This document shows, in pieces, positions 1-46,878 of a DNA stretch of 64,000 nt. The notes under the pieces are model-generated. The model worked only from the letters and a program-made list of their open reading frames with translations, made no database searches and was not told where the DNA came from. This DNA comes from an uncultured Acidimicrobiaceae bacterium (GTDB lineage: Bacteria; Actinomycetota; Acidimicrobiia; Acidimicrobiales; RAAP-2), in the NCBI GenBank assembly GCA_963754445.1, contig CAVWFT010000003.1:76348-140347 (forward strand). The letters are read 5' to 3'. Positions within the stretch are counted from its first letter, which is position 1, and every line of letters starts with the position of its first letter. The position numbers and the translations under genes are program-made.

Positions 1-127
1 CGAAGTTGACGTCTTGCGCCGTGTAGTTGGGCGTCTCGTCGTTGGCGATGTTGTTCGCCGTGGTCTGCTGCTGGAGCGAGACCCCGTCGACTGCGAACTG
101 CAGGACGCCCATGATGCCGTCGGACAC
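1..127 (-). CDS. flgB: Flagellar basal-body rod protein FlgB, first 42 codons only (gene runs off the left edge)
   Basis: Absent from the ORF track because it is truncated. Translating from GTG at 127..125 gives VSDGIMGVLQFAVDGVSLQQQTTANNIANDETPNYTAQDVNF, the ANNxAN..TPxY rod-protein N-terminal signature. AAGGGGGAG Shine-Dalgarno lies just upstream. Confidence 0.75.
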   Translation of the reverse strand, partial: MSDGIMGVLQFAVDGVSLQQQTTANNIANDETPNYTAQDVNF

Positions 128-191
128 GATCTCCCCCTTCGGATGTCACTCGGAGCCGGGCACGCATGGCGCGCCTCGACCTCTTCCTCGA

Positions 192-227
192 GCCCATCCT
201 GGGCGATTCATGCCGGCATTCCCTGCC
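192..227 (-). promoter_or_regulatory. flgB leader module with two GGA-loop hairpins, GGCAGGGAAUGCC and GCCCAGGAUGGGC (candidate CsrA sites)
   Basis: Read directly on the minus strand. Nearly identical to the block at 10126..10162 in the fliE leader. Confidence 0.45.
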
Positions 228-238
228 TGGCACTGGAG

Positions 239-266
239 CTATCGGCCTATGCCGGGGTCACCTTTA
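239..266 (-). promoter_or_regulatory. Sigma-28/FliA-type promoter candidate for flgB: TAAA-N16-GCCGATAG
   Basis: Minus strand reads TAAAGGTGACCCCGGCATAGGCCGATAG. The TAAA overlaps the stop codon of the sulfotransferase gene. Known consensus is TAAA-N15-GCCGATAA. Confidence 0.6.
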
Positions 267-1475
267 GTGTTGGCCCGCCGCGCTGCACTGCATCGCCTCC
301 GCCGCGGCGGCCTCCATCACCTCGGCCGAGGCGAGGAGGCCCCACCCCGACGAGCCGAGGTAGCCGGCCAGTCCGTCCAAGAAGTCTTTCTCGCTCCCGA
401 ATCGCTGCGGGACGTCGCCGTAACGACGCACCGCTCGGCGCTTCAAGGCACTACCGAAGTTCTCGGTGCCGGCGCACAGTCCGTCCAGCGCGGATCGCTC
501 GACGGCGACGACACAGGCCGGAGGCCCCCCGTCGTCGGGTGCCGGCGCGCCGAGCATGGCCGGTACGAAACCGTGCACGACGGCGCGGGCCCGCACCTCG
601 TGACCGTCGACCACCCTGATCTCGAGCGTGCCGTCGTCGGTCCGGACGATCGGACCTCCGCCGCTTCCCCACTCGTTGCCGACCAGGTCGTATCCCAGTT
701 GCTTGAGCAGTTGGTTCATGGCGTCACGCACGGGGATGCCCAGTCGTTCGGGCGGGATGCGGGCTCCTCTCCCGATCGACTCGGCGTGGACGGCGCGTGT
801 GTGCCAGATCTTGTAGTCGGCCGGACCCGAGGACTCGTGGGGCTGGGTGAAGGTGTCGACCGTCGACGTCGGGCTGTCGACGCCGAAAAGCTGCCAGACC
901 TCTGCCATGGACGCGTCGGTCCCGGTCACCAGATCTTCGTAACGGAGGCGCAGGCACCGGCCGGGGTGAGCCTGCTCGAAGGCCAACATGGCCGCCGTGC
1001 GCTCGATCCAGTACCCGCAGACGGCCAGCACGGTGTTGTGCGGGCTCATCTGGGCATAGGACCCGAGGCCGAAGCTGTCGAGTCCCCACTCGGACGCCTC
1101 GAGCAGCGACGCCGTCACGTCCATGCAGTGCCGGTGGAGCAGGATGAAGCGGGCCTCGGGCCAGGCCTCGGCGAGCTGCTCGAGCTCAGCGACGTTGGAG
1201 AGCGATTTGTCGCACCACCGTTGCTTCCCGGCGGCTTCGAGGTGGGATGCCATGAGGGTGTCGACCACGGCCCGGGCCCTTGGCAACACGGTGTCGGCGG
1301 CGAGACCGGCGGCGCGGGCTGAACCGGCGTAGGCGGAAACGAGGGTGGCGAGATCGGTCTCGCCCGGACACGAGATCTGCTCGTGCGCGTCGATCAACCA
1401 GCGCAGCAACGTGGAGCCACTGCGGGCGTTGCAGGCCACGAACACGGGTCCCGAGACCGTCATCGACACCGTCAC
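264..1475 (-). CDS. Sulfotransferase-family protein with an extra C-terminal domain of about 120 aa, last gene of the fliE-fliK operon
   Basis: ORF 264..1766 trimmed to GTG 1475, which overlaps the fliK stop as GTGA (alternative ATG at 1463). Has a PAPS-binding-like motif VACNARSGSTLLRW and a RHCMDVTAS region typical of sulfotransferases. Confidence 0.75.
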   Translation of the reverse strand: MTVSMTVSGPVFVACNARSGSTLLRWLIDAHEQISCPGETDLATLVSAYAGSARAAGLAADTVLPRARAVVDTLMASHLEAAGKQRWCDKSLSNVAELEQLAEAWPEARFILLHRHCMDVTASLLEASEWGLDSFGLGSYAQMSPHNTVLAVCGYWIERTAAMLAFEQAHPGRCLRLRYEDLVTGTDASMAEVWQLFGVDSPTSTVDTFTQPHESSGPADYKIWHTRAVHAESIGRGARIPPERLGIPVRDAMNQLLKQLGYDLVGNEWGSGGGPIVRTDDGTLEIRVVDGHEVRARAVVHGFVPAMLGAPAPDDGGPPACVVAVERSALDGLCAGTENFGSALKRRAVRRYGDVPQRFGSEKDFLDGLAGYLGSSGWGLLASAEVMEAAAAEAMQCSAAGQH

Positions 1476-3439
1476 AGCCGGATGTCCACTCGTCGGCCAC
1501 CGTCGAGCTGTTCGCCCGAGATTGCATCGGTCTCGGAGTCGCGGCGCCCATAGTCGGGTGCGATGTGCTCGGCCGAGGACTTGCTGTTTCCCTGGCCCGG
1601 ACTTGCGTGGCCCTGAGGGGTGCGGTCCCCACGTGGATCCGGCTGCGCCGAACCGAAGTCGGCCAGGTCCACGTTCACGCGGCGGTCGGATCCCTCCGTC
1701 AGTTGGCTGTGGAGCTGGTTGATCGTCTGGGAGAGTGCAGCATGACCGGTGGCCGAGTCGGCCCACAGGCTGACCGACACCTCCTCGCCGGCGACAGAGA
1801 CCGTGGCCTGCACGTTGCCCAGGCCCTCGGGTTGCAGAGACATCGTCACCGAGTGACTGCCGTCGTCGCCGGCCCGCAGCGGGGCGAGCACAGTCAGGAC
1901 CTGCTGCGCCACCGGATCATCGGGAGCGACCGTTCCCGCCCCGGCGAAGGACGCCGTCGGCAGCGCAGTGGGTGCGGTTGCTGTGGGCGGCGCAACACCT
2001 GCCAGTGCCACGGGCGCCAGCCCGGCCGTGGTCGCAGCATTCGTCGTTGGCGCCGCACCTGACGTGGTGCCCGCACCCGACGGTGAACCAGCGGGCGTCG
2101 GCGCCGACCCGGGATCGGATCCCGCACTGGTCGATCGAGGCGTTGACCCCGGTGGGGTCGTCGGAACGGTTGGCGACGTCGTGGCAGGCAACCTGGGGTC
2201 GAGGCGCGAAGACGCGGGCGGCGGCGCGCCTCCCCCAGCCGTCGGCTGTTCCGAGCCACTCTGGCCACGATCACGATCGTTCGACCCCGACGCACGGTCG
2301 GCGGAGCCGGGACCGGTCGGCTCCTCGCTCGAGGAAGACCCCGCGGCACCGGTCGCCGGCGCGGCAATCGACCGGAGACGTCCGTCGTCGGCCCGCCTCG
2401 GAGCCGAGGCGGTCGCCGCGCCCGCTTGGACCTCGTTCGCCGGGCGTTGCGCACTCTGCCCGACCTCAGGCTCGGACGAGCCGGGTGCACGTACCGCAGG
2501 CAGCTCCGATCCACGCCCTGACGAGACAGTGCCGGCCGGCGAGTTGTTGCCGGCGCCCTGTTGCGTGCCGCTCGTCGTGTCGGTCCCACCTGAACGGGCC
2601 GGAGCAGATCCCACGGTGCCCTGGACCTCCGGTGCCGGGGCCGACCGGGGCGCTGGCGCTCCCGAGCGCGCCGGGACCGGCGAGTCGGGAGTCGGGTCGA
2701 CCTGCGTCGCCGCCCGACCACTCGCTACAGGCTGGGCCGCCGGCGGCGTCGTTTCCGGTGACACGGTCGACCTCTCGGCAGCGATCGGGACAGCGGACGT
2801 CGAATCGTCCCTGGTTGTCGCCCCAACCGACCCGCCGGAGCTTTCGGCGCTCGTCGTGCCGGCGGGCCACGAAGGGACCCGGGCCAGCGGATCGTCACGC
2901 CCATCGGTCGTCGGGTCGGCCGGTGCTGCGCTCTGCGCGCTGACGTGGGGGTTCGCGTTGGTGGCGAGGAGGGCCGAGGAACCGGCCGATGACGGGAGAT
3001 CGAGGGCGGAGTGGGCGTCGTTGGCGGATCCGCCGCGGGGGTCGAGCACTGCCGTCGCACCAACCGACGGGAGCTGGGCAACGGTCGGCGCAGAGGTCGG
3101 AGTCACCGCCGCACCCGACGGGCTCGTTGACACGGCGCTGGAGGGCGCTGTGCTCACCCGCGTCCCGTGAGACCGGCGCGTCGGGCCCGGCTCGGCACCG
3201 GCGCCATGGGACTCCGACGGGTCGGACCCGTGTGGGCGGCCCTTTTGATCGCCCCGCTGCTGCACGGACGCAGAAGCGACATCGAGTGCGTCGGTGAACG
3301 CAGCCGCGGTCCCCGTGTCCAACGTGGCTTGGCTGTCGGCCGCTGCCGGGGCGCTCTGTGCCGCAGGCGCCGCAGGATCGGGCCGCGCCGGGTGCGGGGC
3401 CACGAGGTTCGCCAGAGCGGATCCCCCGGCCGCCGTCAT
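1472..3439 (-). CDS. fliK: Flagellar hook-length control protein FliK
   Basis: Pro/Ser/Ala-rich, 655 aa. C-terminal hook-length domain (SVTMSLQPEGLGNVQATVSVAGEEVSVSLWADS..). ATGA overlap with the upstream hydrolase gene. Confidence 0.85.
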   Translation of the reverse strand: MTAAGGSALANLVAPHPARPDPAAPAAQSAPAAADSQATLDTGTAAAFTDALDVASASVQQRGDQKGRPHGSDPSESHGAGAEPGPTRRSHGTRVSTAPSSAVSTSPSGAAVTPTSAPTVAQLPSVGATAVLDPRGGSANDAHSALDLPSSAGSSALLATNANPHVSAQSAAPADPTTDGRDDPLARVPSWPAGTTSAESSGGSVGATTRDDSTSAVPIAAERSTVSPETTPPAAQPVASGRAATQVDPTPDSPVPARSGAPAPRSAPAPEVQGTVGSAPARSGGTDTTSGTQQGAGNNSPAGTVSSGRGSELPAVRAPGSSEPEVGQSAQRPANEVQAGAATASAPRRADDGRLRSIAAPATGAAGSSSSEEPTGPGSADRASGSNDRDRGQSGSEQPTAGGGAPPPASSRLDPRLPATTSPTVPTTPPGSTPRSTSAGSDPGSAPTPAGSPSGAGTTSGAAPTTNAATTAGLAPVALAGVAPPTATAPTALPTASFAGAGTVAPDDPVAQQVLTVLAPLRAGDDGSHSVTMSLQPEGLGNVQATVSVAGEEVSVSLWADSATGHAALSQTINQLHSQLTEGSDRRVNVDLADFGSAQPDPRGDRTPQGHASPGQGNSKSSAEHIAPDYGRRDSETDAISGEQLDGGRRVDIRL

Positions 3440-4542
3440 GACGAGCCGCCGATCAGGCCCATGATCGTGTTCACGTAGTTCTGCGTCTCGGCGTAGGGCG
3501 GAATACCTCCGTACCTCTCGACGGCGCCCGCTCCCGCGTTGTAAGCCGCCAGGGCAAGGGGAACCGAGCCGAATTTGGCAATGTCACCCGAGAGGATCTG
3601 TGCGGCGCCGTCGATGGCCTGCTGAGGATCGAACGGGTTCACGCCCAATCCCTGTGCCGTACTCGGCATGATCTGCATGAGTCCTTCGGCTCCGGCCGAG
3701 CTCACGGCCGATGGGTTGAAACCGGATTCCGTCTTGGCCACTGCGGCCAGCAGCGTCGGAGACACCCCGTATGTCGCACCGGCGGAAAGGAAGAGCGGCG
3801 CCAGGTTCGACGGCACGTTGAGGGATCCCGCCACGGAGCCACTGCTCCCGGCGGACGACGACGTGCTCGTGGCCGGGGTCAGGACACGCCTGATGGCCAC
3901 CGGCGTACCCGCGGCCGACACGGACTGGATCTGAACCGACGTCCCGGTGTGCGGTGCGTCGATCATTTGGCCGTTGCCGATGTAAATGCCCACGTGTCCC
4001 GGGGACGAAGCCGTCCCATCACTGCCGGCGAAGAACACCAGGTCTCCTGGTTGGGCCTGCGCCAACGACGGGACCGCCTGCCCGACCGTCGCCTGCTCCT
4101 CGCTCGTACGGGGCAGAGAGACACCGAGCTGCTTGTAGACGTACTGGACGAGGCCCGAGCAGTCGAAACCCGAGGGGCTGGTCCCGCCCCACACGTAGGG
4201 AACACCGATGTACTTCGAGGCGTCCGCCACCACGGAGGCCCCGCTGACCCCACCCGAACCAGAGGAGGAGAAGGCCGAGAGGGCATTGCCTGTTCCCGAT
4301 GCCGCGGTCGAGCCGAACGTGGACAGCGCTGAGGAGGCACTCGAACCCGTGTTGCTGGTCGAGCTCGATGCCTGCCCGGACACGGCGTCTTGGATCGCCG
4401 AGAGGATGCCGGCGAAGTCGCCCTGCTCGGCGTCGGTCTGGATCGTCGGACCCAGACCCTGTACCGCCGATTGCACCGCGGAAGCCTGCTGGACCATCGC
4501 CGGTGTCGGCACCTGGTCGCTGGTCGGAGCAACCGAGGTCAC
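3436..4542 (-). CDS. Bifunctional peptidoglycan hydrolase: NlpC/P60 endopeptidase plus C-terminal SLT lytic transglycosylase
   Basis: ORF 3436..5340 trimmed to GTG 4542 (GTGA overlap with the fliJ stop). NlpC/P60 signature: YVWGGTSPSGFDCSGLV...GHVGIY. SLT signature: AKTESGFNPSAVSSAGAEGLMQIMPSTA...AYNAG. Confidence 0.85.
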   Translation of the reverse strand: MTSVAPTSDQVPTPAMVQQASAVQSAVQGLGPTIQTDAEQGDFAGILSAIQDAVSGQASSSTSNTGSSASSALSTFGSTAASGTGNALSAFSSSGSGGVSGASVVADASKYIGVPYVWGGTSPSGFDCSGLVQYVYKQLGVSLPRTSEEQATVGQAVPSLAQAQPGDLVFFAGSDGTASSPGHVGIYIGNGQMIDAPHTGTSVQIQSVSAAGTPVAIRRVLTPATSTSSSAGSSGSVAGSLNVPSNLAPLFLSAGATYGVSPTLLAAVAKTESGFNPSAVSSAGAEGLMQIMPSTAQGLGVNPFDPQQAIDGAAQILSGDIAKFGSVPLALAAYNAGAGAVERYGGIPPYAETQNYVNTIMGLIGGSS

Positions 4543-4982
4543 GGGGAGAACTCCTGCTCGCCTGCGATGAAGCGGGCCGTGACGATCCCGTCGACCTCGG
4601 TCGCCTCGTGGCGCGCATCTTCGGCGCGCAGCTCCTCGAGCTTGCGCTCCTGCAGTCGCTCCAGCGCCTCGACCCGCTGCGCCGCCTCGCGCCAGCGGCG
4701 CAGGGCGACCGCCGCTTGTGCCTCCGCCAGGGAGAGCTGGGTAGTGGCCTCGACCAGGCTCGCCGCCGCGAGGTCGGCCGATGCACTCTCCCGGTGGAAC
4801 ACCGTGGCGGACACCGGACCGCTCGACACGGGGACCTCTCGGTAGCGCTGAGCCGACTGGTCGCGCGTCTCGGCGGCGGCGTGCACGGTCCGGTTCCCAC
4901 GCGACAGATCGGCGCGCGCAGACTCCTCTTGAGCACGCCGAACCCGCAACACGGTCTCGAGTCGGAAGCTTCGCTTGCTCAC
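4539..4982 (-). CDS. fliJ: Flagellar export chaperone FliJ
   Basis: Coiled-coil protein of 147 aa (FRLETVLRVRRAQEE...). GTG 4982 overlaps the fliI stop as GTGA. Canonical position after fliI. Confidence 0.75.
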   Translation of the reverse strand: MSKRSFRLETVLRVRRAQEESARADLSRGNRTVHAAAETRDQSAQRYREVPVSSGPVSATVFHRESASADLAAASLVEATTQLSLAEAQAAVALRRWREAAQRVEALERLQERKLEELRAEDARHEATEVDGIVTARFIAGEQEFSP

Positions 4983-6322
4983 GATGCCTTCCGCTCGGCC
5001 GAGAGGTCTGGCACCGCGGCATCGAGGAGGGCGCCGAGCAAAGCCCACGAGCGCGCCGCGTCCTCTGTGACCCGGACGTCCTGGCAGAGGAACGCCTCGA
5101 TGAAGTCAGAGAGCGCAACGGCCCGGTCGACCAGAGGATTGGTGCCGGACACGTACGCACCGATCTCAATGAGGTCCTTGGCATCTCGTGCAGCTGCCAG
5201 CAGCCTCCGCAACTCGCGGGCCATGGCACGCCGTTCGGGGGTCGTGATGGCCGGCTCGACCCGGGAGACCGATTCGAGGACCTCGATGCTGGGGAAATGA
5301 CCGGCCGTGGCCAACCGGCGTGACAGCACGATGTGCCCATCGAGCACCGAACGAGCAGCGTCGGCGATGGGCTCGTTCATGTCGTCGCCGTCGACCAGGA
5401 CGGTGTAGAGACCGGTGATGCTGCCCCGGTCGGACGTCCCGGCCCGCTCGAGAAGTTTCGGCAGGAGCGAGAAGACCGACGGCGGGTACCCACGGGTGAC
5501 GGGCGGTTCACCGGCAGAGAGACCGACTTCGCGCTGCGCCATCGCGAAGCGAGTCAGGCTGTCCATCATCAGCACCACGTCGCGACCCTGATCACGAAAC
5601 CACTCGGCGATCCGCGTGGCTGTGAACGCGGCACGAATGCGGACGAGCGCCGGCTCGTCCGAGGTGGCGACCACGACAACAGATCGCTCCAGGCCTTCTT
5701 CACCGAGGTCGTGTCGGATGAACTCGTTCACTTCACGACCGCGCTCGCCCACCAGGGCCAGGACCACGACGGGAGCATCCGTCCCGCGGGCGATCATGGA
5801 GAGGAGGCTCGACTTGCCCACACCCGAACCTGCGAAGATCCCCATTCGCTGACCGCGTCCGCACGGAGTGAGCGTGTCGATGGCGCGCACTCCAAGGGCC
5901 AGCTGGGTCTCGATCATGTCGCGCTTGAGGGGATGCGGTGCACTGCCCTCGACGGTCACGGGCTCCGTGTCTGCGAGTGCAGGGCCGTCGTCGATCGGAC
6001 GTCCCAGACCGTCGAGGACCCGTCCGAGCAGGCTCTGGCCCACGCTGATCGACATCGGCCGCAACATCGCCTCGACCGGCGCCCCGAAGTGCACGCCCTT
6101 GAGGTCCCCGAACGGCATGCAGGCGAGGCTCTCGCCCTGGACGGCGACGACTTCGGCGTCGAGTATCCCGCCATCACGCCAGACACGCACGGCATCACCG
6201 ACCGCCGCTTCGATGCCTTCGACCTCGAGACGGAGCCCGACCAAGCGGCTGACCCGCCCCGTGCGCCTTGGTTGGCAGGCCTGCCGGGCCGCGGACAGGG
6301 CGGACTCGTTCCACCCGCTCAC
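4979..6322 (-). CDS. fliI: Flagellum-specific ATPase FliI
   Basis: Walker A (AGSGVGKSSLL) and Walker B (DVVLMMDSLTRFA). ORF trimmed to GTG 6322, which overlaps the fliH stop as GTGA. Confidence 0.95.
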   Translation of the reverse strand: MSGWNESALSAARQACQPRRTGRVSRLVGLRLEVEGIEAAVGDAVRVWRDGGILDAEVVAVQGESLACMPFGDLKGVHFGAPVEAMLRPMSISVGQSLLGRVLDGLGRPIDDGPALADTEPVTVEGSAPHPLKRDMIETQLALGVRAIDTLTPCGRGQRMGIFAGSGVGKSSLLSMIARGTDAPVVVLALVGERGREVNEFIRHDLGEEGLERSVVVVATSDEPALVRIRAAFTATRIAEWFRDQGRDVVLMMDSLTRFAMAQREVGLSAGEPPVTRGYPPSVFSLLPKLLERAGTSDRGSITGLYTVLVDGDDMNEPIADAARSVLDGHIVLSRRLATAGHFPSIEVLESVSRVEPAITTPERRAMARELRRLLAAARDAKDLIEIGAYVSGTNPLVDRAVALSDFIEAFLCQDVRVTEDAARSWALLGALLDAAVPDLSAERKAS

Positions 6323-7062
6323 GAACGGCCCCTGGCTCGTTCGAGCACCTGCATCGTCGGTGGCGGCTCGGTCACATCGGATCCGTCGGCCGAGCGAGTT
6401 CCCGACGCGGCCAGGAGTGCCCAGCGCACACGCCCGAGGGCAGACTCGATCTGAGCATCGATTCGGCACGGTCCGGCATCGATGACGCAACCGGCCCGCT
6501 GCACGCTCTCGTCCGGGACGACCGTGATGCGGCAATCCGTGACGTAGGCCTGCAACTCGGTGGCCTCGATCACCTCGTCGGGATGGAGTCGGATGACGAG
6601 GTCCTCACCCGGGGCGGTGAGGCGGAGCGCCCGCCGGATGGCCGAGGCCGCGGCGCTGTCGGCAAGGGACAACTCGTGATCCATGAGGGTCCGCGTCAGC
6701 TCGACGGCCAGGTTGGTGGCGTCCTCTTCGACGACGGAGATCGCGTTGCTCCGTCCCGCCTCGATGGCAGCCGCAGCCTGGGTCAGCGCTGCGGCAGCCC
6801 TCTGGACGGCTTCGCTCCGCAGGTCCTCGGCGCCGCCACGAGCGGCGGCCAGGCCTGCGTGGAAGCCCTCGTCGTACGCCTCCTGGCGGGCCGCTTCGAC
6901 CCGCTCCGTCGGCGATTGATGGCGTCGTGGTCGGGGACTCTCTCCCTCGACGTACTCCACGTTGAGAGCGGCCGGTAGAGCGTTTTCGACCGCTCGGCCG
7001 CGCATCACGCGTGCGGTGCGCCCGCTGGCATTCATTGCCCGGGACTCAGACGACAAGGTCAT
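6319..7062 (-). CDS. fliH: Flagellar assembly protein FliH
   Basis: FliH-like C-terminal region, positioned between fliG and fliI. Start chosen at ATG 7062 behind GAGGTGACG; GTG 7068 and ATG 7035 are alternatives. Confidence 0.8.
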   Translation of the reverse strand: MTLSSESRAMNASGRTARVMRGRAVENALPAALNVEYVEGESPRPRRHQSPTERVEAARQEAYDEGFHAGLAAARGGAEDLRSEAVQRAAAALTQAAAAIEAGRSNAISVVEEDATNLAVELTRTLMDHELSLADSAAASAIRRALRLTAPGEDLVIRLHPDEVIEATELQAYVTDCRITVVPDESVQRAGCVIDAGPCRIDAQIESALGRVRWALLAASGTRSADGSDVTEPPPTMQVLERARGRS

Positions 7063-8050
7063 CGTCACCTCGCATCAACACGATCTCTCCGGCTTCCTCC
7101 ATCTCGCGCACCGTCTTCACGAGCTGCATCTGCGCCGATTCAACGGTGGAGAGCCGGGTCGGCCCGAGCATCTCGATCTCCTCGAGCAGATCCTCCGAGG
7201 CCCTCTCGGAGACGTTGCGCAAGAACTTGTCACGCACGTTGTCGTCGACGCCCTTGAGCGCCACGGCAAGATCTTTCGGCACGACATTGCGCAGAACCTT
7301 CTGCAGCGTCCGGTCATCCAACGCCACCACGTCGTCGAAGACGAAGAGCTGATTGCGGATCTTCTCGGCCACCTCGGGATCGAGTTCGTCGAGCTCGGTC
7401 AGAATCAGCTTCTCGGACGCACGGTCGACGTTGTTGAGGATGCTGACCAACGCGGAAACACCGCCGGCGGCCATACGGGTCACGCCGCCAGGTTGGATCA
7501 ACGTGGCAAATTTACGCTCCACGATGGTCGCGATGTCCTGGACCACCTGCGGGTCGATTCGCCCCATGGTGGCGATGCGGTCGGCCACGTCGACCCGCGA
7601 CTTCTCCTCCATCTTTCCGAGGATGTCTGCGGCGTGATCCGACGCCAGATGCACGAGGATGACGGCGACCGTCTGTGGGTGCTCATCGGCCAGAAACGCA
7701 GTGACCTGGATCGGGTCGAGCCTTTGCAGCAAGGTGAGTGGCCCGTCGCCGCCCACGTAGACCTGCTCCATGACCTCGTCGGCCCGATCCGCTCCCAGCC
7801 GCTCCTTGAGCAGCAGGCGGGCTTGTTCGGCTCCTCCCTGCTGGACGGCCACGATGCTGTTCACTCCCTCGAGGAACTCACCGATCACGTCGTTGACAAC
7901 ACTGGCGTCCAGCTGGGGCAGCTTGGCCATCTCGGTCATGAGCATGACCACTTCGGATTCGCTCATGGACTTGAGGGCCTGCGCGGCGCGATGCGTATCC
8001 ATCTGCGCCAGCACGGTGGCTGCCTTCTGTGGTCCGGTCAGGGACGGCAT
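7046..8050 (-). CDS. fliG: Flagellar motor switch protein FliG
   Basis: MPSLTGPQKAATVLAQMD N-terminus and a full-length FliG-like sequence of 334 aa. Confidence 0.95.
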   Translation of the reverse strand: MPSLTGPQKAATVLAQMDTHRAAQALKSMSESEVVMLMTEMAKLPQLDASVVNDVIGEFLEGVNSIVAVQQGGAEQARLLLKERLGADRADEVMEQVYVGGDGPLTLLQRLDPIQVTAFLADEHPQTVAVILVHLASDHAADILGKMEEKSRVDVADRIATMGRIDPQVVQDIATIVERKFATLIQPGGVTRMAAGGVSALVSILNNVDRASEKLILTELDELDPEVAEKIRNQLFVFDDVVALDDRTLQKVLRNVVPKDLAVALKGVDDNVRDKFLRNVSERASEDLLEEIEMLGPTRLSTVESAQMQLVKTVREMEEAGEIVLMRGDDDLVV

Positions 8051-8074
8051 GCTGGAATGACTCCTCAGCCTCGA

Positions 8075-9682
8075 CTACCCGCGGCCAACAGAGGACGTCT
8101 CGCGCTCCTTCGTCCACGACCGCAGTAGCGCCGCCACCTCGGCAGGCTGGGAGTCGATGAACTTGCCCACTTCCGCGGAGCGCTGTTCGCCCACCGCGGG
8201 CCGCTCGGAACCGATGGCCGAGACCTGGGCCGTGGCGTCGGCCGATCCGGGGTCGTAGTCGAGCGCGACCGCCGTAGCCGTCGGAACGAGCATCGGTGTG
8301 CGCCGGGGCACCCGGTTCTTCTTGGCACTGCGCCACAGGAGGAAGAGGACTGCCACAATGATGAGAACGACGACCGCAGTGCGGATGAGGCCGTTCATCG
8401 ATTGTTTCGACTGAGCCGCCTGCGCTGCTGCGGCAGCCTTGTTGGCGGCCGCCTCGGTCGCCGTCGAGAAGGGTGCCTCGCTCATCACCAGGTTGTCGCC
8501 TCTGGTCGCGTTGACGCCGGCGGCAGCCGCAACGCCCTGCTTGAGAGTGGCCAGGCTCACGCCCTTGGGGACGCTCTTGGCATTCACGAGCACGGCGATG
8601 GACTGGTTTTCCAAGGTCCCCGGTGCGTTCTTCTGGGTCTGCGTGACGGTTCCTGTGGAGTAGTTCGTGGACGTCGAGGAGTTCGAGTAGTTGCCCGAAC
8701 CGGTGTTGCCGCCCGCGGTCGTGGCCGACCCGAGGGTTCCGCCGCTCGTGGCACCCCCGGTGGCCGTCTCGGTGCTGGTCTGCGTCTGTGTCGGGACAGA
8801 GACGGGCTTGCCACCCGGATCGGTCTGGAATCCGTTCGTCACGGTCGACACCTGGTTGAAGTTCAGCAGCGCATTCACCTGGATCTCCGCGTTGCCCTGC
8901 CCGAGCACGCTGGCCAGATACGAGGCGATCTTCGCTTGCTGAGAGGCTTCGAACGCGCTGGTCGCCCCGTCGTTGGAACCGGCTGACGTGTCCACCCCAG
9001 GGCCCGAGAGGAGGTCGCCGTTCGAGTCGGCCACCGTGACATTGGACGCGCCCAGCCCTGGCACCGAGCTTGCGACGAGGTGCACGATTGCTTGGACCTC
9101 ACTGCCCGAGAGTGCTTGGCCCTGGGCGGTATCCACCAGCACGGAGGCTCCGGTCGGCGTGGCATTGGTCACGGCGAAGGTGTTCGCCTGGGGCATGGCC
9201 AGGTTCACCTGCGCGCCGGTGACGCCGTGAATCGACTCGATCGTCGACTGCAACTCACCCTGGAGGGCTTGGAGGTAGTCGGCCTGCTGAGTGGCCTGTG
9301 AGGTCGTGATCCCCTCCTTGTCCAGGATCCCGAGGCCGACGTTCGAACTCGCCGCGGGCAGGCCGGCAGAGGCCATGGCGATGCGTTCCTGGTCGACGTC
9401 GTTCTGGGGCACGTAGATGGACGCGCCACCGTCTTGAAGCTGGTACGGCACATGATTGGCCGCCAGCTTCGATGTGATGGAGGCGGCGTCGGCAGGTTGG
9501 AGATTCGTGAAGAGTGGCGCGTAGCTCGGCTTCGACACGAGGTTCATGAAGAAGTAACCGCCGATGACCATGACGGCGACCGCAACCAGTGTCACTGCCT
9601 TCTGCCCGGGAGTGAAGCCGTCGGCAAACCGACGGGCCCCTGCTCGCCAGCGGTCGAAATCTGCTGAGGCGACGAGAGCCAT
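8075..9682 (-). CDS. fliF: Flagellar M-ring protein FliF
   Basis: 535 aa with N- and C-terminal TM segments and a central Ser/Thr/Gly-rich region. One-nt overlap (TGATG) with fliE. Confidence 0.9.
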   Translation of the reverse strand: MALVASADFDRWRAGARRFADGFTPGQKAVTLVAVAVMVIGGYFFMNLVSKPSYAPLFTNLQPADAASITSKLAANHVPYQLQDGGASIYVPQNDVDQERIAMASAGLPAASSNVGLGILDKEGITTSQATQQADYLQALQGELQSTIESIHGVTGAQVNLAMPQANTFAVTNATPTGASVLVDTAQGQALSGSEVQAIVHLVASSVPGLGASNVTVADSNGDLLSGPGVDTSAGSNDGATSAFEASQQAKIASYLASVLGQGNAEIQVNALLNFNQVSTVTNGFQTDPGGKPVSVPTQTQTSTETATGGATSGGTLGSATTAGGNTGSGNYSNSSTSTNYSTGTVTQTQKNAPGTLENQSIAVLVNAKSVPKGVSLATLKQGVAAAAGVNATRGDNLVMSEAPFSTATEAAANKAAAAAQAAQSKQSMNGLIRTAVVVLIIVAVLFLLWRSAKKNRVPRRTPMLVPTATAVALDYDPGSADATAQVSAIGSERPAVGEQRSAEVGKFIDSQPAEVAALLRSWTKERETSSVGRG

Positions 9683-9996
9683 CAGAAGCTCATGCCCATG
9701 ATGGAGTTGAAGGCGTCAACCGCCTTGGTCACCATGGCCGACGTGACCTGCGTGTCGACCGAGGCCTGGGTCGCCGCGATCATGGCATCTCCGATATTCC
9801 CCTGGCCGGCCGCCACCTGGGCGGCCTGACTCGAGGCCGAGGCCTGTGTGCTCTGGAGTTGATCGACCGCATTGAGGATGCTGTTGGAAAAGCCGTCGGA
9901 ACCGGATGCGGCTGCGCCGGCGGAGGTCGCACTCGACGAGCCGGCGGCGGCCGTTGGCGGCGTGGGTGGTGACGGAGGGATTGGCGGGATCACCAT
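9682..9996 (-). CDS. fliE: Flagellar hook-basal body complex protein FliE
   Basis: C-terminal FliE signature (GDAMIAATQASVDTQVTSAMVTKAVDAFNSIMGMSF). ATG 9996 sits behind GGAG. Confidence 0.85.
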   Translation of the reverse strand: MVIPPIPPSPPTPPTAAAGSSSATSAGAAASGSDGFSNSILNAVDQLQSTQASASSQAAQVAAGQGNIGDAMIAATQASVDTQVTSAMVTKAVDAFNSIMGMSF

Positions 9997-10125
9997 GGGC
10001 GAATCTCCAACCAGGCCCGGGCAGCATTTGCCCTGGCACTCCAACTGCGGGACACAGTCACCACCCCTTGGACGTCACGTCGATGGCGTCATCGCGCGTT
10101 GCGCGACGAGCGTCACTCTCACCGT

Positions 10126-11017: not shown

Positions 11018-13558
11018 CTAGGACAGACCCGACAGCGCGCTGGCGAGAGACTGGCTTTGGTTCTTGAGCGTGCCCAACGTGACCTCGAGTTGGCTGAACT
11101 CCTGTTGGAGCGACTTCTGTTCGGACGCAGCCAGTGACTGCTCGAAGGCAATCTCGGTGTTCATGCTGTTGGCCTGCTTGGTCAGGCCCTGTGCCGCCAG
11201 CGTGATCGAGCCGTTCACCGGGTTCGACATGGCGGAGGTCAGGCTGGAGAGACTCTGGGCAATGCCGGGCTGATAATTGAAGGTGCCCAGATCGGTGGCC
11301 GAGGTGATCCCGCTCTCGGTGACCTGGAGCGACAGCCCGCCCAGGGTCGGGTCCGTGACCGGGGCACTCAGGAACTGGCCGCTTCCGGTTGCGGTGACGC
11401 CGTTGATGGTGCCGACAACGTCCGAGCCGCTGAACGAGGCCGCCGTCCCGGCCGTGGCCCCGCCCAATCCGGTCGTCCCCGCACCCGTTGCGCTCGAGGT
11501 CACCGAGAACTGCGCTGCGCTGCCGAAATCCGAAGACGTGAGCTCCAGTTGCTGACCGTTGAGCACCTGGGCTGACAGAGAGATCCCCGCTCCAGCCAGA
11601 GCGGCATTGATCCCGCTGGCCACGTTGGTGAGGCTCTCGCCGGCCGAGGTGGCGAAATTGACGCTCTGCCCACCGGCCGCGATCGTCAACGTTTCCGCCG
11701 TACCGATAGTGCCACCGGTCAGGGTGGAACCAAGGTCCGTGGCCTGCGTGGCCGAGTGCGAGATGTTCACGTCATAGCTGCCGGCCTGCGACGTTGGTGA
11801 GGCGTAGGAGAAGCTCACGGCTCCGTTGTATGTGGCCGAGGCAGGCGAGAAGCCGCCGCCCGAGGTGAAGAGATTGGCCACCTGGGTCGGATTGGCGCTG
11901 AAGGCCGATTCGAATGCCGTCTGATCGAAATTGATCTGCCCGGACGCCAAGGTGACGCCGACACTCTCACCGTTGCCGAGAGTCGACGACCCCGCCGTGG
12001 CGGCAAAGGTGCCGAGGATCTGATTCTGGAGGTTCTGCAGCACGGCCGAGCCCATGAGCGGACCGGCAACCTTGGTCGATTCGTTGTACCCCGCGTACTG
12101 CGTGATGTCCGACAGCACCTGATTCGCCGCCGTGACCATGCTGCCCACTGCGGTCGACATGGCGTTCGCATCGGGGGCGACGCTGACCGTCACCGGGCTC
12201 GAGGTCGTGGAGGCCACCGTCACGGACAGTCCGGGCAGCAGACCGGCGAAAGTGTCGGACTGCGAGCTCAAGGTGTAGCCACCCGTGCCACCTACCTGGA
12301 TCTGGGCGTTCGTCCCGGCCGTTGCGGTCCGCAGCGCTCCGAGGGTCGAGGACGAAAAGGCGGCCGGGTCCACGGACAAGTTCGCCGCAGTCCCGGTCGT
12401 CGACGACGAAAGCTGGAGAATGTACTGGTTCGTACCGGTCTGCACGGCCGAGGCGATGATGCCGGTCCCGGCGCCGTTGATGTTCGACACCAAGTCGGCC
12501 AGAGAGCCGTTGCCGGTCGACACGTTGGTGCCGGTGATCGATCCCGTCGAGAGAAGCGAGCTGTTCACCGTAGGCAACGCGGTCAGCGCGTTCAGTGTGG
12601 CCGAGATCGTGCCGCCACTCCCCGAATTGAGCGTGACCGCCGCTCCGGCGGTGACATCGGTCAGGGTGTTGGCCGTACCGTCGACGGTGATCACGCCGTC
12701 CACACCGGTCGAGGCCGTGGCCTGCGCCGTGAGCCCCAACGTGGCCAACGCCGACCCGCCGGTCACCTGCAGGCTCTGGCTGCTGCCCTGATCGGCGGTC
12801 GAGAGCACGAGATTCCCGTTGGCGTCGTAACCGGCCTGCAGGACTCCCGAGGCGCCGGCCGTGCTGATGGCCGATTGCACGGCGCTGAGCAGACTGGACC
12901 CGGTGTAACCCCCGGTCGGGCTGGCGGCGAGCGTCAGTCCGTAACTGGTGCCGTTGACCGTGACGTTCAGGGTGTTGTTGCCGGCTCCGATGGTGACCGC
13001 AGTCTGGTTCCCGACTCCCCCGGTGCCCACGGCGGATGCGGCTTCAGAGGCCTGCGTGACGGTGATGGAGTGCGATCCCTGCGTGAGGCCGGTGCCGGCG
13101 ACCAAGGTGGCCAGACCGTATTGACCCCCGCCTTGAGCGAGCAGCAGCGATGGGTTGGTGTCGACCACATCGGCGGTCGAGGCCACGCTGCCCGACGAGA
13201 CCAGCGAGTTGGCCGCGGCGAGCGAGAGAACATTGAACGAAACCGACCCCGACGGAGTACCAGAGGTGGCCGTGGCGGTCGCGGCGGCGCTCGACGACGT
13301 GGCCTTGACTGCGCCCCACCCCGATTGCAACGAAAGCGCCTGGGCGGCCGTCTGAAAGGCCAGGAGATCCTTGTTGATCGCCTGGTAGTCCGCGGCCTCC
13401 GAGTTGAATCCGCTCTGCTGGTTCTGCAGATCGGTGATCGGCTCGTTGTAGCTCGTCATCAGCGCCTGGATGATCGAGGCGGTGTTGAGGCCGGAGATGA
13501 TGCCGTTGTCGACGATCGGCGGGCTGGACGTGCTCGAACCCGAAGAGGAGACAGTCAT
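11018..13558 (-). CDS. fliD: Flagellar filament cap protein FliD (unusually long, 846 aa)
   Basis: N-terminal GLNTASIIQALMTSYNEPITDLQNQQ and C-terminal FliD-like heptads. Long Ser/Thr/Gly-rich centre. Confidence 0.9.
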   Translation of the reverse strand: MTVSSSGSSTSSPPIVDNGIISGLNTASIIQALMTSYNEPITDLQNQQSGFNSEAADYQAINKDLLAFQTAAQALSLQSGWGAVKATSSSAAATATATSGTPSGSVSFNVLSLAAANSLVSSGSVASTADVVDTNPSLLLAQGGGQYGLATLVAGTGLTQGSHSITVTQASEAASAVGTGGVGNQTAVTIGAGNNTLNVTVNGTSYGLTLAASPTGGYTGSSLLSAVQSAISTAGASGVLQAGYDANGNLVLSTADQGSSQSLQVTGGSALATLGLTAQATASTGVDGVITVDGTANTLTDVTAGAAVTLNSGSGGTISATLNALTALPTVNSSLLSTGSITGTNVSTGNGSLADLVSNINGAGTGIIASAVQTGTNQYILQLSSSTTGTAANLSVDPAAFSSSTLGALRTATAGTNAQIQVGGTGGYTLSSQSDTFAGLLPGLSVTVASTTSSPVTVSVAPDANAMSTAVGSMVTAANQVLSDITQYAGYNESTKVAGPLMGSAVLQNLQNQILGTFAATAGSSTLGNGESVGVTLASGQINFDQTAFESAFSANPTQVANLFTSGGGFSPASATYNGAVSFSYASPTSQAGSYDVNISHSATQATDLGSTLTGGTIGTAETLTIAAGGQSVNFATSAGESLTNVASGINAALAGAGISLSAQVLNGQQLELTSSDFGSAAQFSVTSSATGAGTTGLGGATAGTAASFSGSDVVGTINGVTATGSGQFLSAPVTDPTLGGLSLQVTESGITSATDLGTFNYQPGIAQSLSSLTSAMSNPVNGSITLAAQGLTKQANSMNTEIAFEQSLAASEQKSLQQEFSQLEVTLGTLKNQSQSLASALSGLS

Positions 13559-13709: not shown

Positions 13710-14546
13710 TTAGCTCAGGAGCTTCAGAACCAGTGAAGGCATCTGCTGCGCCTGCGAAAGCATCGACACACCCGACTGCATCAGGATTTGGTCGGTGCTG
13801 AACTTCGACGTCGCCTGAGCGAAGTTGACGTCGACCAGACCGCTGTAGGCGGCCTGAAGGTTTTGCTGGCCAACGGTGAGGTTGGCCACGATTGCCGTCA
13901 GTTGGTCCTGCGTAGCACCGACGTTGGCCTCGATGGACGCCACCGTGTTGATGGCGGCCTGGACAGCCGAGATCGCAGCCTGAGCGGACACGGCGTTGCC
14001 GACCGCGATCGACCCCGAAGAAACACCCAGGGACGCCGAAGTGGCGGCCTGGATCGTGATCGTCAGCTGCTGGTTGGTGTTGTCGAAGGCGCCGACCTGG
14101 AGAACCTGACCCGAGAACGAGCCGTCAAGCAGGTTGGTGGTACCGAACGACGTGGTGTTGGCAATCTGGTCGATCTGGTTCTGCAGAGCCGCAAACTCCT
14201 GCTGGTTGGCCGACAGCGACTGCGTGCTGTTGGTGGCACCGTTCGAGGAGTTGATGGCCAGCGAGTCCATCGTCTGGAGAAGCGACGAGATCTGGTTGAG
14301 CGCGCCGTTCGCCGTCTGAATCATCGAGACGCCGTTTTGGGCGTTCGACACTGCCTGCTGGTACCCGTTCGACTGGGAAAGGAGGTCCTGAGAGACCACG
14401 TACCCCGACGGGTTGTCGGCAGCGCTTTGGATCTGCAGACCCGACGACAACTGTGAAATGGCCGTCGACATCTGCGAGTCGGTGGCGTTCAAGTTGTTGT
14501 AGGCGTCAATCGCCGCAATGTTTGTGTTGACTACAAGGGAAGACAT
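13710..14546 (-). CDS. fliC: Flagellin (short, 278 aa)
   Basis: N-terminal LVVNTNIAAIDAYNNL...LSSGLQIQSAADNPSG and a conserved C-terminal flagellin domain. Confidence 0.95.
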   Translation of the reverse strand: MSSLVVNTNIAAIDAYNNLNATDSQMSTAISQLSSGLQIQSAADNPSGYVVSQDLLSQSNGYQQAVSNAQNGVSMIQTANGALNQISSLLQTMDSLAINSSNGATNSTQSLSANQQEFAALQNQIDQIANTTSFGTTNLLDGSFSGQVLQVGAFDNTNQQLTITIQAATSASLGVSSGSIAVGNAVSAQAAISAVQAAINTVASIEANVGATQDQLTAIVANLTVGQQNLQAAYSGLVDVNFAQATSKFSTDQILMQSGVSMLSQAQQMPSLVLKLLS

Positions 14547-14550
14547 CCGT

Positions 14551-14578
14551 TCCTCCTGGGTTGTGCCCCATCCATGGG
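14551..14578 (-). promoter_or_regulatory. fliC leader: GGA-loop hairpin CCCAUGGAUGGGG plus SD CAGGAGGA (candidate CsrA binding sites)
   Basis: Minus strand reads ...GUCCCAUGGAUGGGGCACAACCCAGGAGGAACGGAUG. Confidence 0.5.
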
Positions 14579-14657
14579 ACTCTTTTTGTCTGTCTAGGTT
14601 CCCTTCGCCGAGGTATCAGGTTTCCCCCTCCTCACCCGAACCTGGGCACCGTGAATA

Positions 14658-14684
14658 CAGTCGGCTGGCCACCAGCGGGCTTGA
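14658..14684 (-). promoter_or_regulatory. Sigma-28-type promoter candidate for fliC: TCAA-N15-GCCGACTG
   Basis: Read on the minus strand. An alternative perfect -10 GCCGATAG lies at 14722..14715 but has no good -35. Confidence 0.3.
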
Positions 14685-14723
14685 GCAGAGACTTTGGGGT
14701 TGTCTCGGCGTTGTCCTATCGGC

Positions 14724-14751
14724 TCAACCCTCCTGAACAGGCCGCCGATAC
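14724..14751 (+). promoter_or_regulatory. Sigma-28-type promoter candidate: TCAA-N16-GCCGATAC, ending 6 nt before the ATG at 14758
   Basis: Plus strand reads TCAACCCTCCTGAACAGGCCGCCGATACctgatcATG. Confidence 0.5.
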
Positions 14752-14757
14752 CTGATC

Positions 14758-17058: not shown

Positions 17059-17188
17059 GGTCGTAGGGTCGACCAAGCCGCGACAGGCGGAGCGATCTCT
17101 TCGTGTCGTCGGCGAGCGACGGAGTGGCGCGCACACCGAGCTGCGCAAGCAGCATTCGTCGGGGTCACGAACCGGGCGCTGGCCCAGG

Positions 17189-19564: not shown

Positions 19565-19830
19565 CAGGGAGATCGGTGCCGCCGCGGTGGCGTGGTCCGA
19601 CGTGCGCCCACCTGCTCCGGGAGCGTGGCGATGGCCCGCGGCGCGCGGCGCGGTGACGCGACCCCCGCCGCCACGAGAGCGACTGCCGGACTTTCGACCT
19701 CCCCGCTGGGGCACGACGTTGATGGTCGTCGCGAAACCGTTCGAAATTGAGCGTTTCTTGATCAAACGACGCGGGCGGACAGGTGCGCCGACGGCTGAGC
19801 GATGCGACCAGAGTTGGTCGGGCGGCACCT

Positions 19831-19890
19831 GTGGGTCGTGCGGTGGGTCGTGCGGTGGTTCGTGCGGTGGTTCGTGCGGTTGGTCGGGCG
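19831..19890. repeat. 12-nt tandem repeat, about 5 copies of gtgg(g/t)tcgtgcg
   Basis: Units at 19831, 19843, 19855 and 19867, plus a degenerate unit at 19879 that is identical to 19813..19824. Confidence 0.85.
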
Positions 19891-19903
19891 GTCCGTCGAT
19901 CAT

Positions 19904-19940
19904 GTCCGCCGGTGACGTCCGCCGGTGACGTCCGCCGGCC
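19904..19940. repeat. 13-nt tandem repeat gtccgccggtgac, about 2.6 copies
   Basis: Read directly. Confidence 0.8.
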
Positions 19941-19975
19941 GGGAATTCCGTGTCGACTCAGGTCAGTGCCACATC

Positions 19976-20003
19976 TCAAGAATCCCTGAAGGTGGGCCGA
20001 TGT
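19976..20003 (+). promoter_or_regulatory. Sigma-28-type promoter candidate for the FkbH-like gene: TCAA-N16-GCCGATGT
   Basis: Plus strand reads TCAAGAATCCCTGAAGGTGGGCCGATGT. Confidence 0.45.
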
Positions 20004-20081
20004 CTGGTTTGAGGTGTTGCGGCCGCCCGAGCGGCAGGGCACGAGAGCAGTTGGCTCTCTCCCACCGAAGGAGGACCCCCG

Positions 20082-22367: not shown

Positions 22368-22392
22368 AGCCCACCTCGCCCCGCGCCGATAT
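22365..22392 (+). promoter_or_regulatory. Sigma-28-type promoter candidate for flhA: TAAA-N16-GCCGATAT
   Basis: Plus strand reads TAAAGCCCACCTCGCCCCGCGCCGATAT. The TAAA overlaps the stop codon of the FkbH-like gene. Confidence 0.6.
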
Positions 22393-22426
22393 TCCGTTCG
22401 GAGGACGAGCAGCCACCGGACGGCGC

Positions 22427-22472
22427 TCACACCTCGGCCAGGGACCGGCCGACCCCTTTTGGTGAGGTGTGA
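22427..22472 (+). promoter_or_regulatory. flhA leader hairpin that pairs with the SD and start codon, with an inner GGA-loop hairpin
   Basis: UCACACCUC (22427..22435) is perfectly complementary to GAGGUGUGA (22464..22472). Inner hairpin is CGGCC-AGGGACC-GGCCG. Confidence 0.5.
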
Positions 22473-26113: not shown

Positions 26114-26401
26114 ATGGGTGTCCGGCGACCGGAGCTGGTCCTGGGGGCGGCCGTTCTCGTCAGCTTGCCCATGGTGCCCGACATCCTGAGCGGCGCCATC
26201 GACACGACGGCCGCGCTCGTGCGCTTCCTCGGGGCCATCCTCGTCTGCTGGGTGTTGGCCTCGATCGTGCAGTCGGTCGTGGACCGGTACGCCGATGCGG
26301 CCGCCCAGCGCGAGTACGAGGTGCAGTTGGCCCGGGCACGGGCCCAGCACGTGACGGCGTCGGACATCGAAAGTCCCGGAGGTCCCGCGGCACAGGGGTG
26401 A
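26114..26401 (+). CDS. Small membrane protein, 95 aa, two predicted TM helices
   Basis: ATG lies 3 nt after the flhF-like stop. Hydrophobic segments LVLGAAVLVSLPMV and FLGAILVCWVLASIV. Confidence 0.5.
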   Translation: MGVRRPELVLGAAVLVSLPMVPDILSGAIDTTAALVRFLGAILVCWVLASIVQSVVDRYADAAAQREYEVQLARARAQHVTASDIESPGGPAAQG

Positions 26402-26450
26402 GCTGGATCTATACTCGCCGCCTGGTACGAGATCCCCGAGGAGGCGGCCC

Positions 26451-46782: not shown

Positions 46783-46878
46783 ATTGTTAGACAACGAGTG
46801 CCAGGGTTTCCGGGGACGCAGAGCAACGGACCAGGTTGCTCGCTCCGACAGCGGAAGTGAGGCCGGTACGCTCCGCCC

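Follow-up and report, generated by a model that had tools for sequence, protein, structure and literature searches.

Known sulfotransferases and the present locus

In bacteria, sulfation is uncommon and has been little explored. The sulfotransferase domains of CurM and the olefin synthase (OLS; PDB 4GBM, 4GOX) lie inside polyketide synthase (PKS) megasynthases, where they act on a beta-hydroxyacyl chain held by an acyl carrier protein (ACP), beside a thioesterase; the CurM-type domain has a Glu base. NoeE and NodH are Sulfotransfer-type enzymes whose acceptor is a lipo-oligosaccharide. In general, a sulfotransferase needs a basic residue in the 5'-phosphosulfate-binding (5'-PSB) region and a Ser in the 3'-phosphate-binding (3'-PB) region, the two Negishi motifs, and between these a His or Glu that serves as base (PMC6637879). 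Tyrosylprotein sulfotransferases (TPSTs) need an unfolded acceptor, in which Asp at position -1 is a main determinant (PMC5562738), and RaxST of Xanthomonas is a cytoplasmic TPST-like enzyme encoded beside its secreted substrate RaxX (PMC6637879). TPSTs are homodimers in which the partner subunit helps to form the acceptor cleft. The only documented case that we found for a motility filament is that of Agl30 and Agl31 of Halobacterium, which sulfate the archaellin N-glycan (PMC11980604). Here we describe a predicted sulfotransferase gene that directly follows fliK in the flagellar gene cluster of an uncultured soil actinobacterium, on a 64,000-nucleotide stretch of contig CAVWFT010000003.1 (assembly GCA_963754445.1), hereafter called the window.

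The window has a G+C content of 68.5%. Its host belongs to the Acidimicrobiia, with an uncultured Acidimicrobiaceae metagenome-assembled genome (MAG) as the closest named relative; other homologs are labelled Acidimicrobiia or Acidimicrobiales. Among solved structures, TPST1/TPST2 (PDB 3AP1, 5WRJ) and the tick TPST (8W5Z) were the best sequence matches of the encoded protein (E 5e-6 to 7e-5). They belong to the same Pfam family and fit the sulfotransferase model with template modelling (TM) scores, relative to the target, of 0.65–0.72 and a root-mean-square deviation of ~4 Å. The protein shares with them the constellation of Arg (5'-PSB), Glu base, Lys, and Arg/Ser (3'-PB), whereas the identity is only ~20%, the TPSTs are Golgi-lumenal and this bacterial enzyme is predicted to be cytoplasmic, and an extra SCP2-like domain is present here. 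The gene arrangement recalls that of RaxST, in that the neighbour here is FliK, with a D/E-Y tail. The sulfated Tyr of RaxX also follows an Asp (DY context). However, RaxX exits by a type I system whereas FliK uses the flagellar type III one, and FliK sulfation is a hypothesis.

The CurM/OLS domains share the Sulfotransfer_3-type fold and gave the top Foldseek match (E 2e-10), whereas the enzyme here is stand-alone; no ACP, PKS, or thioesterase was found near it in the window, its neighbours being fliK and flgB. Agl30/Agl31 differ in that they are archaeal, act on an N-linked glycan, and are encoded outside the motility operon; archaella and bacterial flagella are also unrelated structures. 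NoeE (NF052394) was the sole NCBIfam match (E 5.6e-8), and its 31.9 bits fall against a cut-off of 500, so the protein is not a NoeE member; there is no nod context here. The enzyme superfamily is known; its context in a flagellar operon appears undescribed. The literature searched contained no sulfotransferase as part of a bacterial flagellar operon, in line with an earlier note on this DNA, made from the sequence alone, whose author knew of no characterised case.

A predicted PAPS-dependent sulfotransferase with an SCP2-like domain

The gene and the functional elements of its product lie at the following window positions (aa, amino acid residues).

264–1475, minus strand: sulfotransferase gene, 403 aa from GTG 1475; stop codon TAA at 264–266
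666–1448, minus strand: sulfotransferase catalytic domain, aa ~10–270 (Pfam Sulfotransfer_3, Foldseek, phmmer)
1401–1427, minus strand: 5'-PSB loop ARSGSTLLR, aa 17–25 (TPST2 alignment and family alignment)
1359–1361, minus strand: Glu39, predicted catalytic base, in the invariant CPGE motif (TPST2 alignment, 43 homologs)
1107–1133, minus strand: 3'-PB motif R115...D119...S123 (RHCMDVTAS), which pairs with RDGRASVHS of TPST2
267–635, minus strand: C-terminal SCP2-like domain, aa ~281–403 (AlphaFold2 [AF2] model of the domain alone, Foldseek)

Three start codons are possible (GTG 1475, GTG 1469, and ATG 1463), and an identical public protein (P0001) begins at the last of these, with 399 aa. Over aa 10–200, Sulfotransfer_3 (PF13469) scored 95 bits (cut-off 27, E 1e-26). 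The full-length AF2 model was of high quality (pLDDT, the predicted local distance difference test, 89; pTM, the predicted TM score, 0.87). When it was searched with Foldseek, 37 of 37 PDB matches at E <= 1e-3 were sulfotransferase-fold proteins with a probability of 1.0, led by the CurM sulfotransferase, TPST1/2, and the olefin-synthase sulfotransferase (E 2e-10 to 5e-8, TM to target 0.64–0.72). The best phmmer matches in the PDB were TPSTs, namely tick TPST (E 5e-6) and human TPST2 (6e-5).

In an alignment of 43 homologs, E39, K90, R115, D119, and S123 were invariant and R18 nearly so, and the ARSGSTLLR loop was kept in at least 90% of the sequences. R18, E39, K90, R115, and S123 align with R78, E99, K158, R183, and S191 of TPST2, numbered by our own count along the sequence. 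In TPST alignments R18 corresponds to the Arg of PRSG, E39 to the second Glu of GEET, and K90 to the Lys of CNKD. All three kinds of residue required in sulfotransferases are therefore present: R18, S123 (with R115), and Glu39 between them. No N-terminal signal sequence was found in the protein, and the fold begins at residue 10. Judged from these residues and the predicted structure, the protein is very probably an active, cytoplasmic sulfotransferase that depends on 3'-phosphoadenosine 5'-phosphosulfate (PAPS).

Residues ~281–403 were also conserved throughout the family in the 43-sequence alignment. No Pfam family, SCP2 families included, matched aa 276–403 at E <= 5. Modelled alone (AF2, pLDDT 86), this region shows a beta-beta-beta-alpha-alpha-beta topology followed by a long helix, and its top 43 PDB matches in Foldseek were all of SCP2 type (best E 6e-4, probability up to 1.0, TM ~0.45): SCP2, the SCP2L domain of MFE-2, mosquito SCP2, UbiJ-SCP2, and the C-domains of alkylsulfatases. 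The SCP2 fold, with UbiJ-SCP2 and the SdsA1 C-domain among its members, was thus the sole fold family among these top PDB matches, but at a TM of ~0.45, and the domain here lacks the N-terminal helices of canonical SCP2. We infer from the model that the C-terminal ~120 aa are SCP2-like. SCP2 domains usually bind lipids or other hydrophobic tails; in some actinobacterial enzymes, such as the Eis acetyltransferase, the fold is structural, so it is not always a lipid binder. No report of a sulfotransferase–SCP2 fusion turned up in the literature searched, and the fusion appears undescribed.

The earlier note had described a sulfotransferase-family open reading frame (ORF) of about 400 aa, had taken RSGSTLLRW for the PAPS-binding motif, and had proposed classification by hidden Markov models (HMMs) and structure. 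The length of 403 aa, the Sulfotransfer_3 score, the catalytic residues, and the predicted fold bear out the first point. RSGSTLLRW corresponds to aa 18–26 (A-RSGSTLLRW, aa 17–26), inside the nearly invariant 5'-PSB loop, and Pfam and AF2 with Foldseek all give a sulfotransferase. Its description of the protein stands for this domain and had overlooked the SCP2-like one.

Operon position of the sulfotransferase gene

The junctions on both sides of the gene are formed by the following features.

1472–3439, minus strand: fliK, 655 aa, with a Flg_hook domain at aa 525–582 (Pfam)
1472–1475, minus strand: GTGA start/stop overlap of fliK and the sulfotransferase gene (GTG 1475–1473, TGA 1474–1472)
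3436–4542, minus strand: flagellar peptidoglycan hydrolase, an NlpC/P60 + SLT fusion, with 4-nt overlaps at both ends
240–266, minus strand: sigma-28 (FliA/SigD/WhiG)-type motif TAAA-N17-CCGATA (pattern scan), its TAA being the sulfotransferase stop codon
128–239, minus strand: conserved flgB 5' leader with two hairpins; Shine–Dalgarno (SD) sequence at 131–140
1–127, minus strand: 5' part of flgB, from GTG 127, with the ANNIAN rod motif; runs off the window

Neighbouring genes overlap by 4 nt at fliH/fliI, fliI/fliJ, and fliJ/hydrolase (GTGA each), at hydrolase/fliK (ATGA), and at fliK/sulfotransferase (GTGA), the last being the fifth consecutive overlap of this kind counted from fliH. Because its start overlaps the fliK stop, the sulfotransferase is positioned for co-production with FliK by termination–reinitiation. 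At the other end of the gene, the TAAA-N17-CCGATA motif, which follows the promoter consensus of sigma-28/SigD/WhiG, starts on the sulfotransferase stop codon. The window contains two matches where 0.02 would be expected; the second copy (22365–22391, plus strand) begins on the TAA stop of the FkbH-domain gene and precedes flhA. A terminator scan gave no terminator-like site between the sulfotransferase gene and flgB. Given the overlaps, the promoter motif on the stop codon, and the lack of such a site, the sulfotransferase gene closes the early unit fliF-G-H-I-J-hydrolase-fliK as its final cistron, set against the flgB promoter. This is the arrangement that the earlier note had read from the sequence: a GTG overlapping the fliK stop as GTGA (1475–1472), the same coupling along the four junctions from fliH to fliK, and a place between fliK and the flgB promoter.

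Conservation and origin of the locus

The order fliF-G-H-I-J-hydrolase-fliK-sulfotransferase-flgB-flgC-flgD-flgE was also found in loci L002 (69% protein identity), L003 (68%), L004/L005 (54%), L008 (a frameshifted assembly), and L037 (a fragment). Counting the window with L001, where flgB is followed by flgC-flgD-flgE, six lineages have the order fliK-sulfotransferase-flgB. In the relatives the first in-frame start lies 2–4 nt past the fliK stop (TAA-CC-GTG, TGA-AC-ATG, TGA-CC-ATG, TGA-CGCC-ATG). Across lineages the start is therefore kept within -4 to +4 nt of that stop while the junction sequence differs, so a tight junction has been maintained despite sequence turnover. Pairwise dN/dS of the sulfotransferase among four orthologs was 0.23–0.41, comparable with the values for the hydrolase and for flgB, flgC, and flgD, with saturated synonymous divergence (dS ~1). 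We conclude that the gene is kept at the fliK–flgB position under purifying selection in one soil Acidimicrobiia clade. The earlier note had proposed a synteny survey, and had said that its idea would fall if the gene were absent from flagellar loci of close relatives or if the domain assignment failed under HMM search; the gene is present in those loci and the assignment holds.

In a neighbour-joining tree the flagellar-context sequences formed one clade with P0035 as sister. Outside this clade (54% identity and above), six of six homologs examined had the same length and both domains and lay in non-flagellar neighbourhoods: P0030 (52%), P0035 (50%), P0045 (48%), P0032 (46%), P0054 (44%), and P0056 (42%). 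The genes beside them were priA/metK; an extracytoplasmic function sigma factor with lipoproteins; Clp_N/GH3; a WbsX-type glycosyltransferase (GT) with DUF2079; GtrA; and DUF3298/M48. With 0 of 6 in a flagellar neighbourhood, the family as a whole is not generally associated with flagella. A FlgB-like N-terminus lies at L036 1–155 (minus strand), ~6 kb from P0045, and at least one 'non-flagellar' family member may therefore lie near a flagellar cluster.

A protein scan of a genome collection gave one close relative (L008, an Acidimicrobiaceae MAG) and paralogs of ~40% identity in Streptosporangiaceae and other actinomycete MAGs, which had no match to the C-terminal domain and no flagellar neighbours. 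A metagenome scan with a FlgB alignment gave six loci, including L037, in which the order was confirmed, and L038; neither scan provides a denominator of flagellar loci with versus without the sulfotransferase.

A more distant relative, L045/L046, has the same hydrolase, a FliK domain that is ~51–55% identical, and the canonical order fliE-F-G-H-I-J-hydrolase-fliK-flgD-flgE; no sulfotransferase is present at this locus, and fliK stands directly before flgD. Since it occurs in six lineages and is absent from the distant L045/L046, the sulfotransferase is clade-specific and accessory, not core. In L038 flgB-flgC stand ahead of fliE-fliF, the ancestral order, behind the same sigma-28-like motif; no sulfotransferase was found within 14 kb in this locus, which ends before fliK. 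Compared with L045/L046 and L038, the window clade is rearranged (window 1–10040), in that flgB-flgC with promoter and leader follow fliK instead of preceding fliE-fliF. The promoter-flgB-flgC module would have moved from before fliE to behind fliK, and a stand-alone actinobacterial sulfotransferase would have been captured once at the new fliK/flgB junction. In the simplest history that we infer from the gene orders, the ancestor of the window clade underwent both changes in a single event or in two that were linked.

At L038 5832–6716 (minus strand) a SAM-dependent methyltransferase gene lies between fliD/fliS and flgB, immediately ahead of the flgB promoter, and represents another accessory modifying enzyme at a flagellar operon boundary in Acidimicrobiia.

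The FliK tail tyrosine

FliK contains a single tyrosine.

1550–1552, minus strand: Tyr630, the sole FliK tyrosine, in APDYGRRDSETD, 25 residues from the C-terminus; candidate sulfation site

The tail peptide around it includes EHIAPDYGRRDSETD. In each sulfotransferase-bearing lineage FliK has exactly one Tyr in 477–655 residues, 20–26 residues from the C-terminus. It stands in an otherwise variable tail, usually with D/E before it and acidic residues after it (APDYGRRDSETD, HDYVPDDEQ, HDYLSDDDQ, IEYSP); D/E occupies position -1 in most lineages (PDY, HDY, IEY). The tail is acidic and probably disordered. In L045/L046, which have no sulfotransferase gene, the FliK tail lacks Tyr, as do the tails of P0139 and P0141–P0143, FliKs of no established sulfotransferase status. 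Among 120 diverse FliK representatives with a canonical C-terminus, the Tyr frequency in the tails was 0.35%, and 6 had a Tyr 18–28 residues from the end; 5 of these 6 had D/E at -1, and 3 were the nearest relatives of the clade. D-Y tails also occur in P0265, P0299, and P0341, and close FliKs without the Tyr are P0266 and P0268–P0270.

The N-terminal part of FliK, ~480 aa, is rich in Pro, Ser, Thr, and Ala and of low complexity. Public FliK calls often comprise only the C-terminal 130–210 aa (e.g., P0121, 139 aa), so FliK is widely truncated in MAG annotations.

Candidate acceptors

Flagellum-linked sulfation is plausible. We put the chance that the function of the enzyme is tied to the flagellum at even. 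As an explanation of the whole, an operon-embedded sulfotransferase acting on a rod/hook-stage component is the best one, held tentatively and at somewhat below an even chance. Such an enzyme would sulfate, in the cytoplasm, a hydroxyl on something made or exported at this stage, and sulfation would precede export through the flagellar type III system. The lead candidate acceptor would be Tyr630 in the D/E-Y motif of the FliK C-terminal tail. The acidic D/E-Y context, the preference of TPSTs for an unfolded acceptor with Asp at -1, and the rank of TPSTs as closest solved sequence relatives speak for it, and the process would resemble the action of RaxST on RaxX ahead of export. In absolute terms we still consider this Tyr an unlikely acceptor. 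A sulfate ~25 residues from the FliK C-terminal motif could, speculatively, tune the hook-length/substrate-specificity switch; the full proposal, in which the coupled cytoplasmic Tyr sulfotransferase modifies the FliK tail and thereby tunes the hook-to-filament switch, is slightly less likely still. A flagellar glycan as acceptor seems more doubtful again. With a clear enzyme identity, a fixed operon wiring, and a conserved candidate acceptor, the question of the acceptor is directly testable.

The glycosylation genes beside fliC, which together with fliC span 13710–22367, bear on the flagellar glycan.

13710–14546, minus strand: fliC (context)
14758–17058, plus strand: GT2 + tetratricopeptide repeat (TPR) protein, flagellin glycosylation island (context)
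17189–19903, minus strand: GT4 (double GT4) protein, flagellin glycosylation island (context)
20082–22367, plus strand: FkbH-domain protein (TIGR01686, 181 bits against a cut-off of 147)

Several observations weigh against action on a rod/hook-stage component or on the FliK Tyr. The co-distribution of this Tyr with the sulfotransferase is essentially one phylogenetic contrast. R102/R106 of TPST1, which bind acidic acceptor residues (PMC5562738), align with D41/L45 here, as do R101/R105 of TPST2, and equivalents of R123 and R285, which have the same role in TPST1, are not reliably alignable. The SCP2-like domain suggests a hydrophobic ligand and would be left unexplained by a peptide acceptor, no PAPS-synthesis genes were found within the window, and the gene sits at an operon end and rearrangement junction, where neutral insertion is most tolerated. 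Only four residues, none in the catalytic core, set the flagellar clade apart (M190, C321, F340, and P356), so the type of acceptor probably did not change on recruitment. The last point leads to the serious rival, an enzyme that acts as its stand-alone relatives do and that merely came to rest at the 3' end of the fliF–fliK operon and stayed there; we regard it as a substantial possibility, at about one chance in three. Its acceptor would be a lipid, a lipid-linked glycan, or another hydrophobic envelope or metabolic molecule held by the SCP2-like domain, and co-expression with flagellar genes after the flgBC transposition would be incidental or loosely adaptive. The homologs of the same architecture, with the same invariant residues in non-flagellar neighbourhoods, argue for it, and so do the SCP2-like fold with alkylsulfatase C-domains among its matches, the CurM sulfotransferase (which acts on acyl-ACP) as top structural match, the weak similarity to NoeE, annotated as a nodulation protein, and the fliK–flgD junction of L045/L046 without the gene. 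However, the position has been held in at least six lineages over dS ~1, with a start no more than 4 nt from the fliK stop, no genes for the biosynthesis of lipids or the envelope were found nearby in the window, and the non-flagellar neighbourhoods have no common theme that names a substrate. SCP2-like domains of actinobacterial enzymes, as in Eis, also need not bind lipids.

In view of the island next to fliC, the earlier note had suggested sulfation of a flagellar component, such as the flagellin or hook glycan or a Tyr/Ser residue. In its glycan form, the enzyme would sulfate the O-glycan placed on flagellin or hook proteins by the GT2-TPR/GT4/FkbH island, much as Agl30/Agl31 modify the archaellin N-glycan. 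The island exists as described, and archaea offer a precedent for sulfated glycans on a motility filament (PMC11980604). A GT2-TPR homolog is probably on the sulfotransferase contig in the window genome and three relatives, as inferred by matching between hit tables, which is suggestive and in which absences are unreliable because error-prone assemblies split genes. The proposed link itself was not supported: the sulfotransferase lies 12 kb from the island in the early fliF–fliK unit, a transcription unit separate from fliC, and GT2-TPR proteins are far commoner in Acidimicrobiales (537 matches, E <= 1e-20) than the flagellar sulfotransferase clade. By the same table matching, a GT2-TPR homolog is probably also on the contig of the Tyr-less FliK P0139, where no sulfotransferase match is listed. 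No carbohydrate sulfotransferase model was matched above threshold (NoeE, 32 bits against 500), and the literature searched held nothing relevant on sulfated glycans of bacterial flagellins; we regard this explanation as improbable. That there is no functional gene, the ORF being a chance one, a decaying pseudogene, or an inactive scaffold, is very improbable. Some public copies do look broken, with several frameshifts in L008 and apparent FliK–sulfotransferase 'fusions' in P0137 and P0048. Yet these copies sit in assemblies whose neighbouring genes are frameshifted too, and, if these are long-read assemblies as we assume, likely reflect sequencing errors; the window copy and those of other assemblies are intact with dN/dS of 0.23–0.41, the PAPS-binding and catalytic residues are invariant or nearly so, and the fold is confidently predicted.

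Two candidate observations from the broken copies were rejected. The fusion ORFs P0137 and P0048 had been considered as Rosetta-stone evidence; their FliK tails are out of frame, and they are therefore frameshift artefacts and not real fusions. The L008 frameshifts (5300–7500, in fliK and the sulfotransferase gene) were not accepted as a pseudogene, since neighbouring genes are frameshifted as well.

If the acceptor is flagellar, flagellar assembly would gain a post-translational modification of a new type, which might act at the hook-length switch. With FliK in particular as the acceptor, a ruler protein of type III secretion would for the first time be reported to carry a covalent modification, and tyrosine sulfation would be new both to Actinomycetota and to substrates of type III export. 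If the acceptor is non-flagellar, the enzyme would belong to a widespread, uncharacterised actinobacterial sulfotransferase–SCP2 family in need of a substrate, and the locus would be a warning that conserved operon membership alone is no proof of shared function.

The flgB leader and other features of the flagellar cluster

The sigma-28-like motif before flgB is also present in L002, L003, L004, L008, and L038. The 137-nt spacer between the sulfotransferase gene and flgB has a mean nucleotide identity of 79% in five lineages, which exceeds the conservation of the sulfotransferase. The leader within it folds with z = -3.7 and forms the hairpins GGCA-GGGAA-UGCC (215–227) and GCCCA-GGA-UGGGC (192–204); an Rfam scan of window 1–1600 gave no match. 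Both hairpins show GGA in the loop, like CsrA binding sites. A similar hairpin seems, by eye, to be present in the flhA leader (22392–22468, plus strand), and csrA lies inside the flagellar cluster, within 26355–26771 (plus strand). The flgB and flhA leaders may thus form a CsrA-controlled leader of rod and export-gate genes, as far as their sequences indicate.

The NlpC/P60 + SLT hydrolase between fliJ and fliK is kept in all relatives and presumably replaces FlgJ in these monoderms. The flagellin is minimal (278 aa, D0/D1 only), its gene being divergent from that of the GT2 + TPR glycosyltransferase, and FliD is unusually long (846 aa; 11018–13558, minus strand). For a 541-aa ORF directly after flhA (24486–26111, plus strand), Pfam gave no match and the N-terminus of FlhF only a faint one (E 1e-4); its product may be either a highly diverged FlhF or a flagellar protein not yet described. 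The flagellar cluster ends near 33.2 kb, and just outside it lie two large LuxR-family regulators with AAA_16 (STAND-like) ATPase domains (33437–36193 and 46861–49524, both plus strand).

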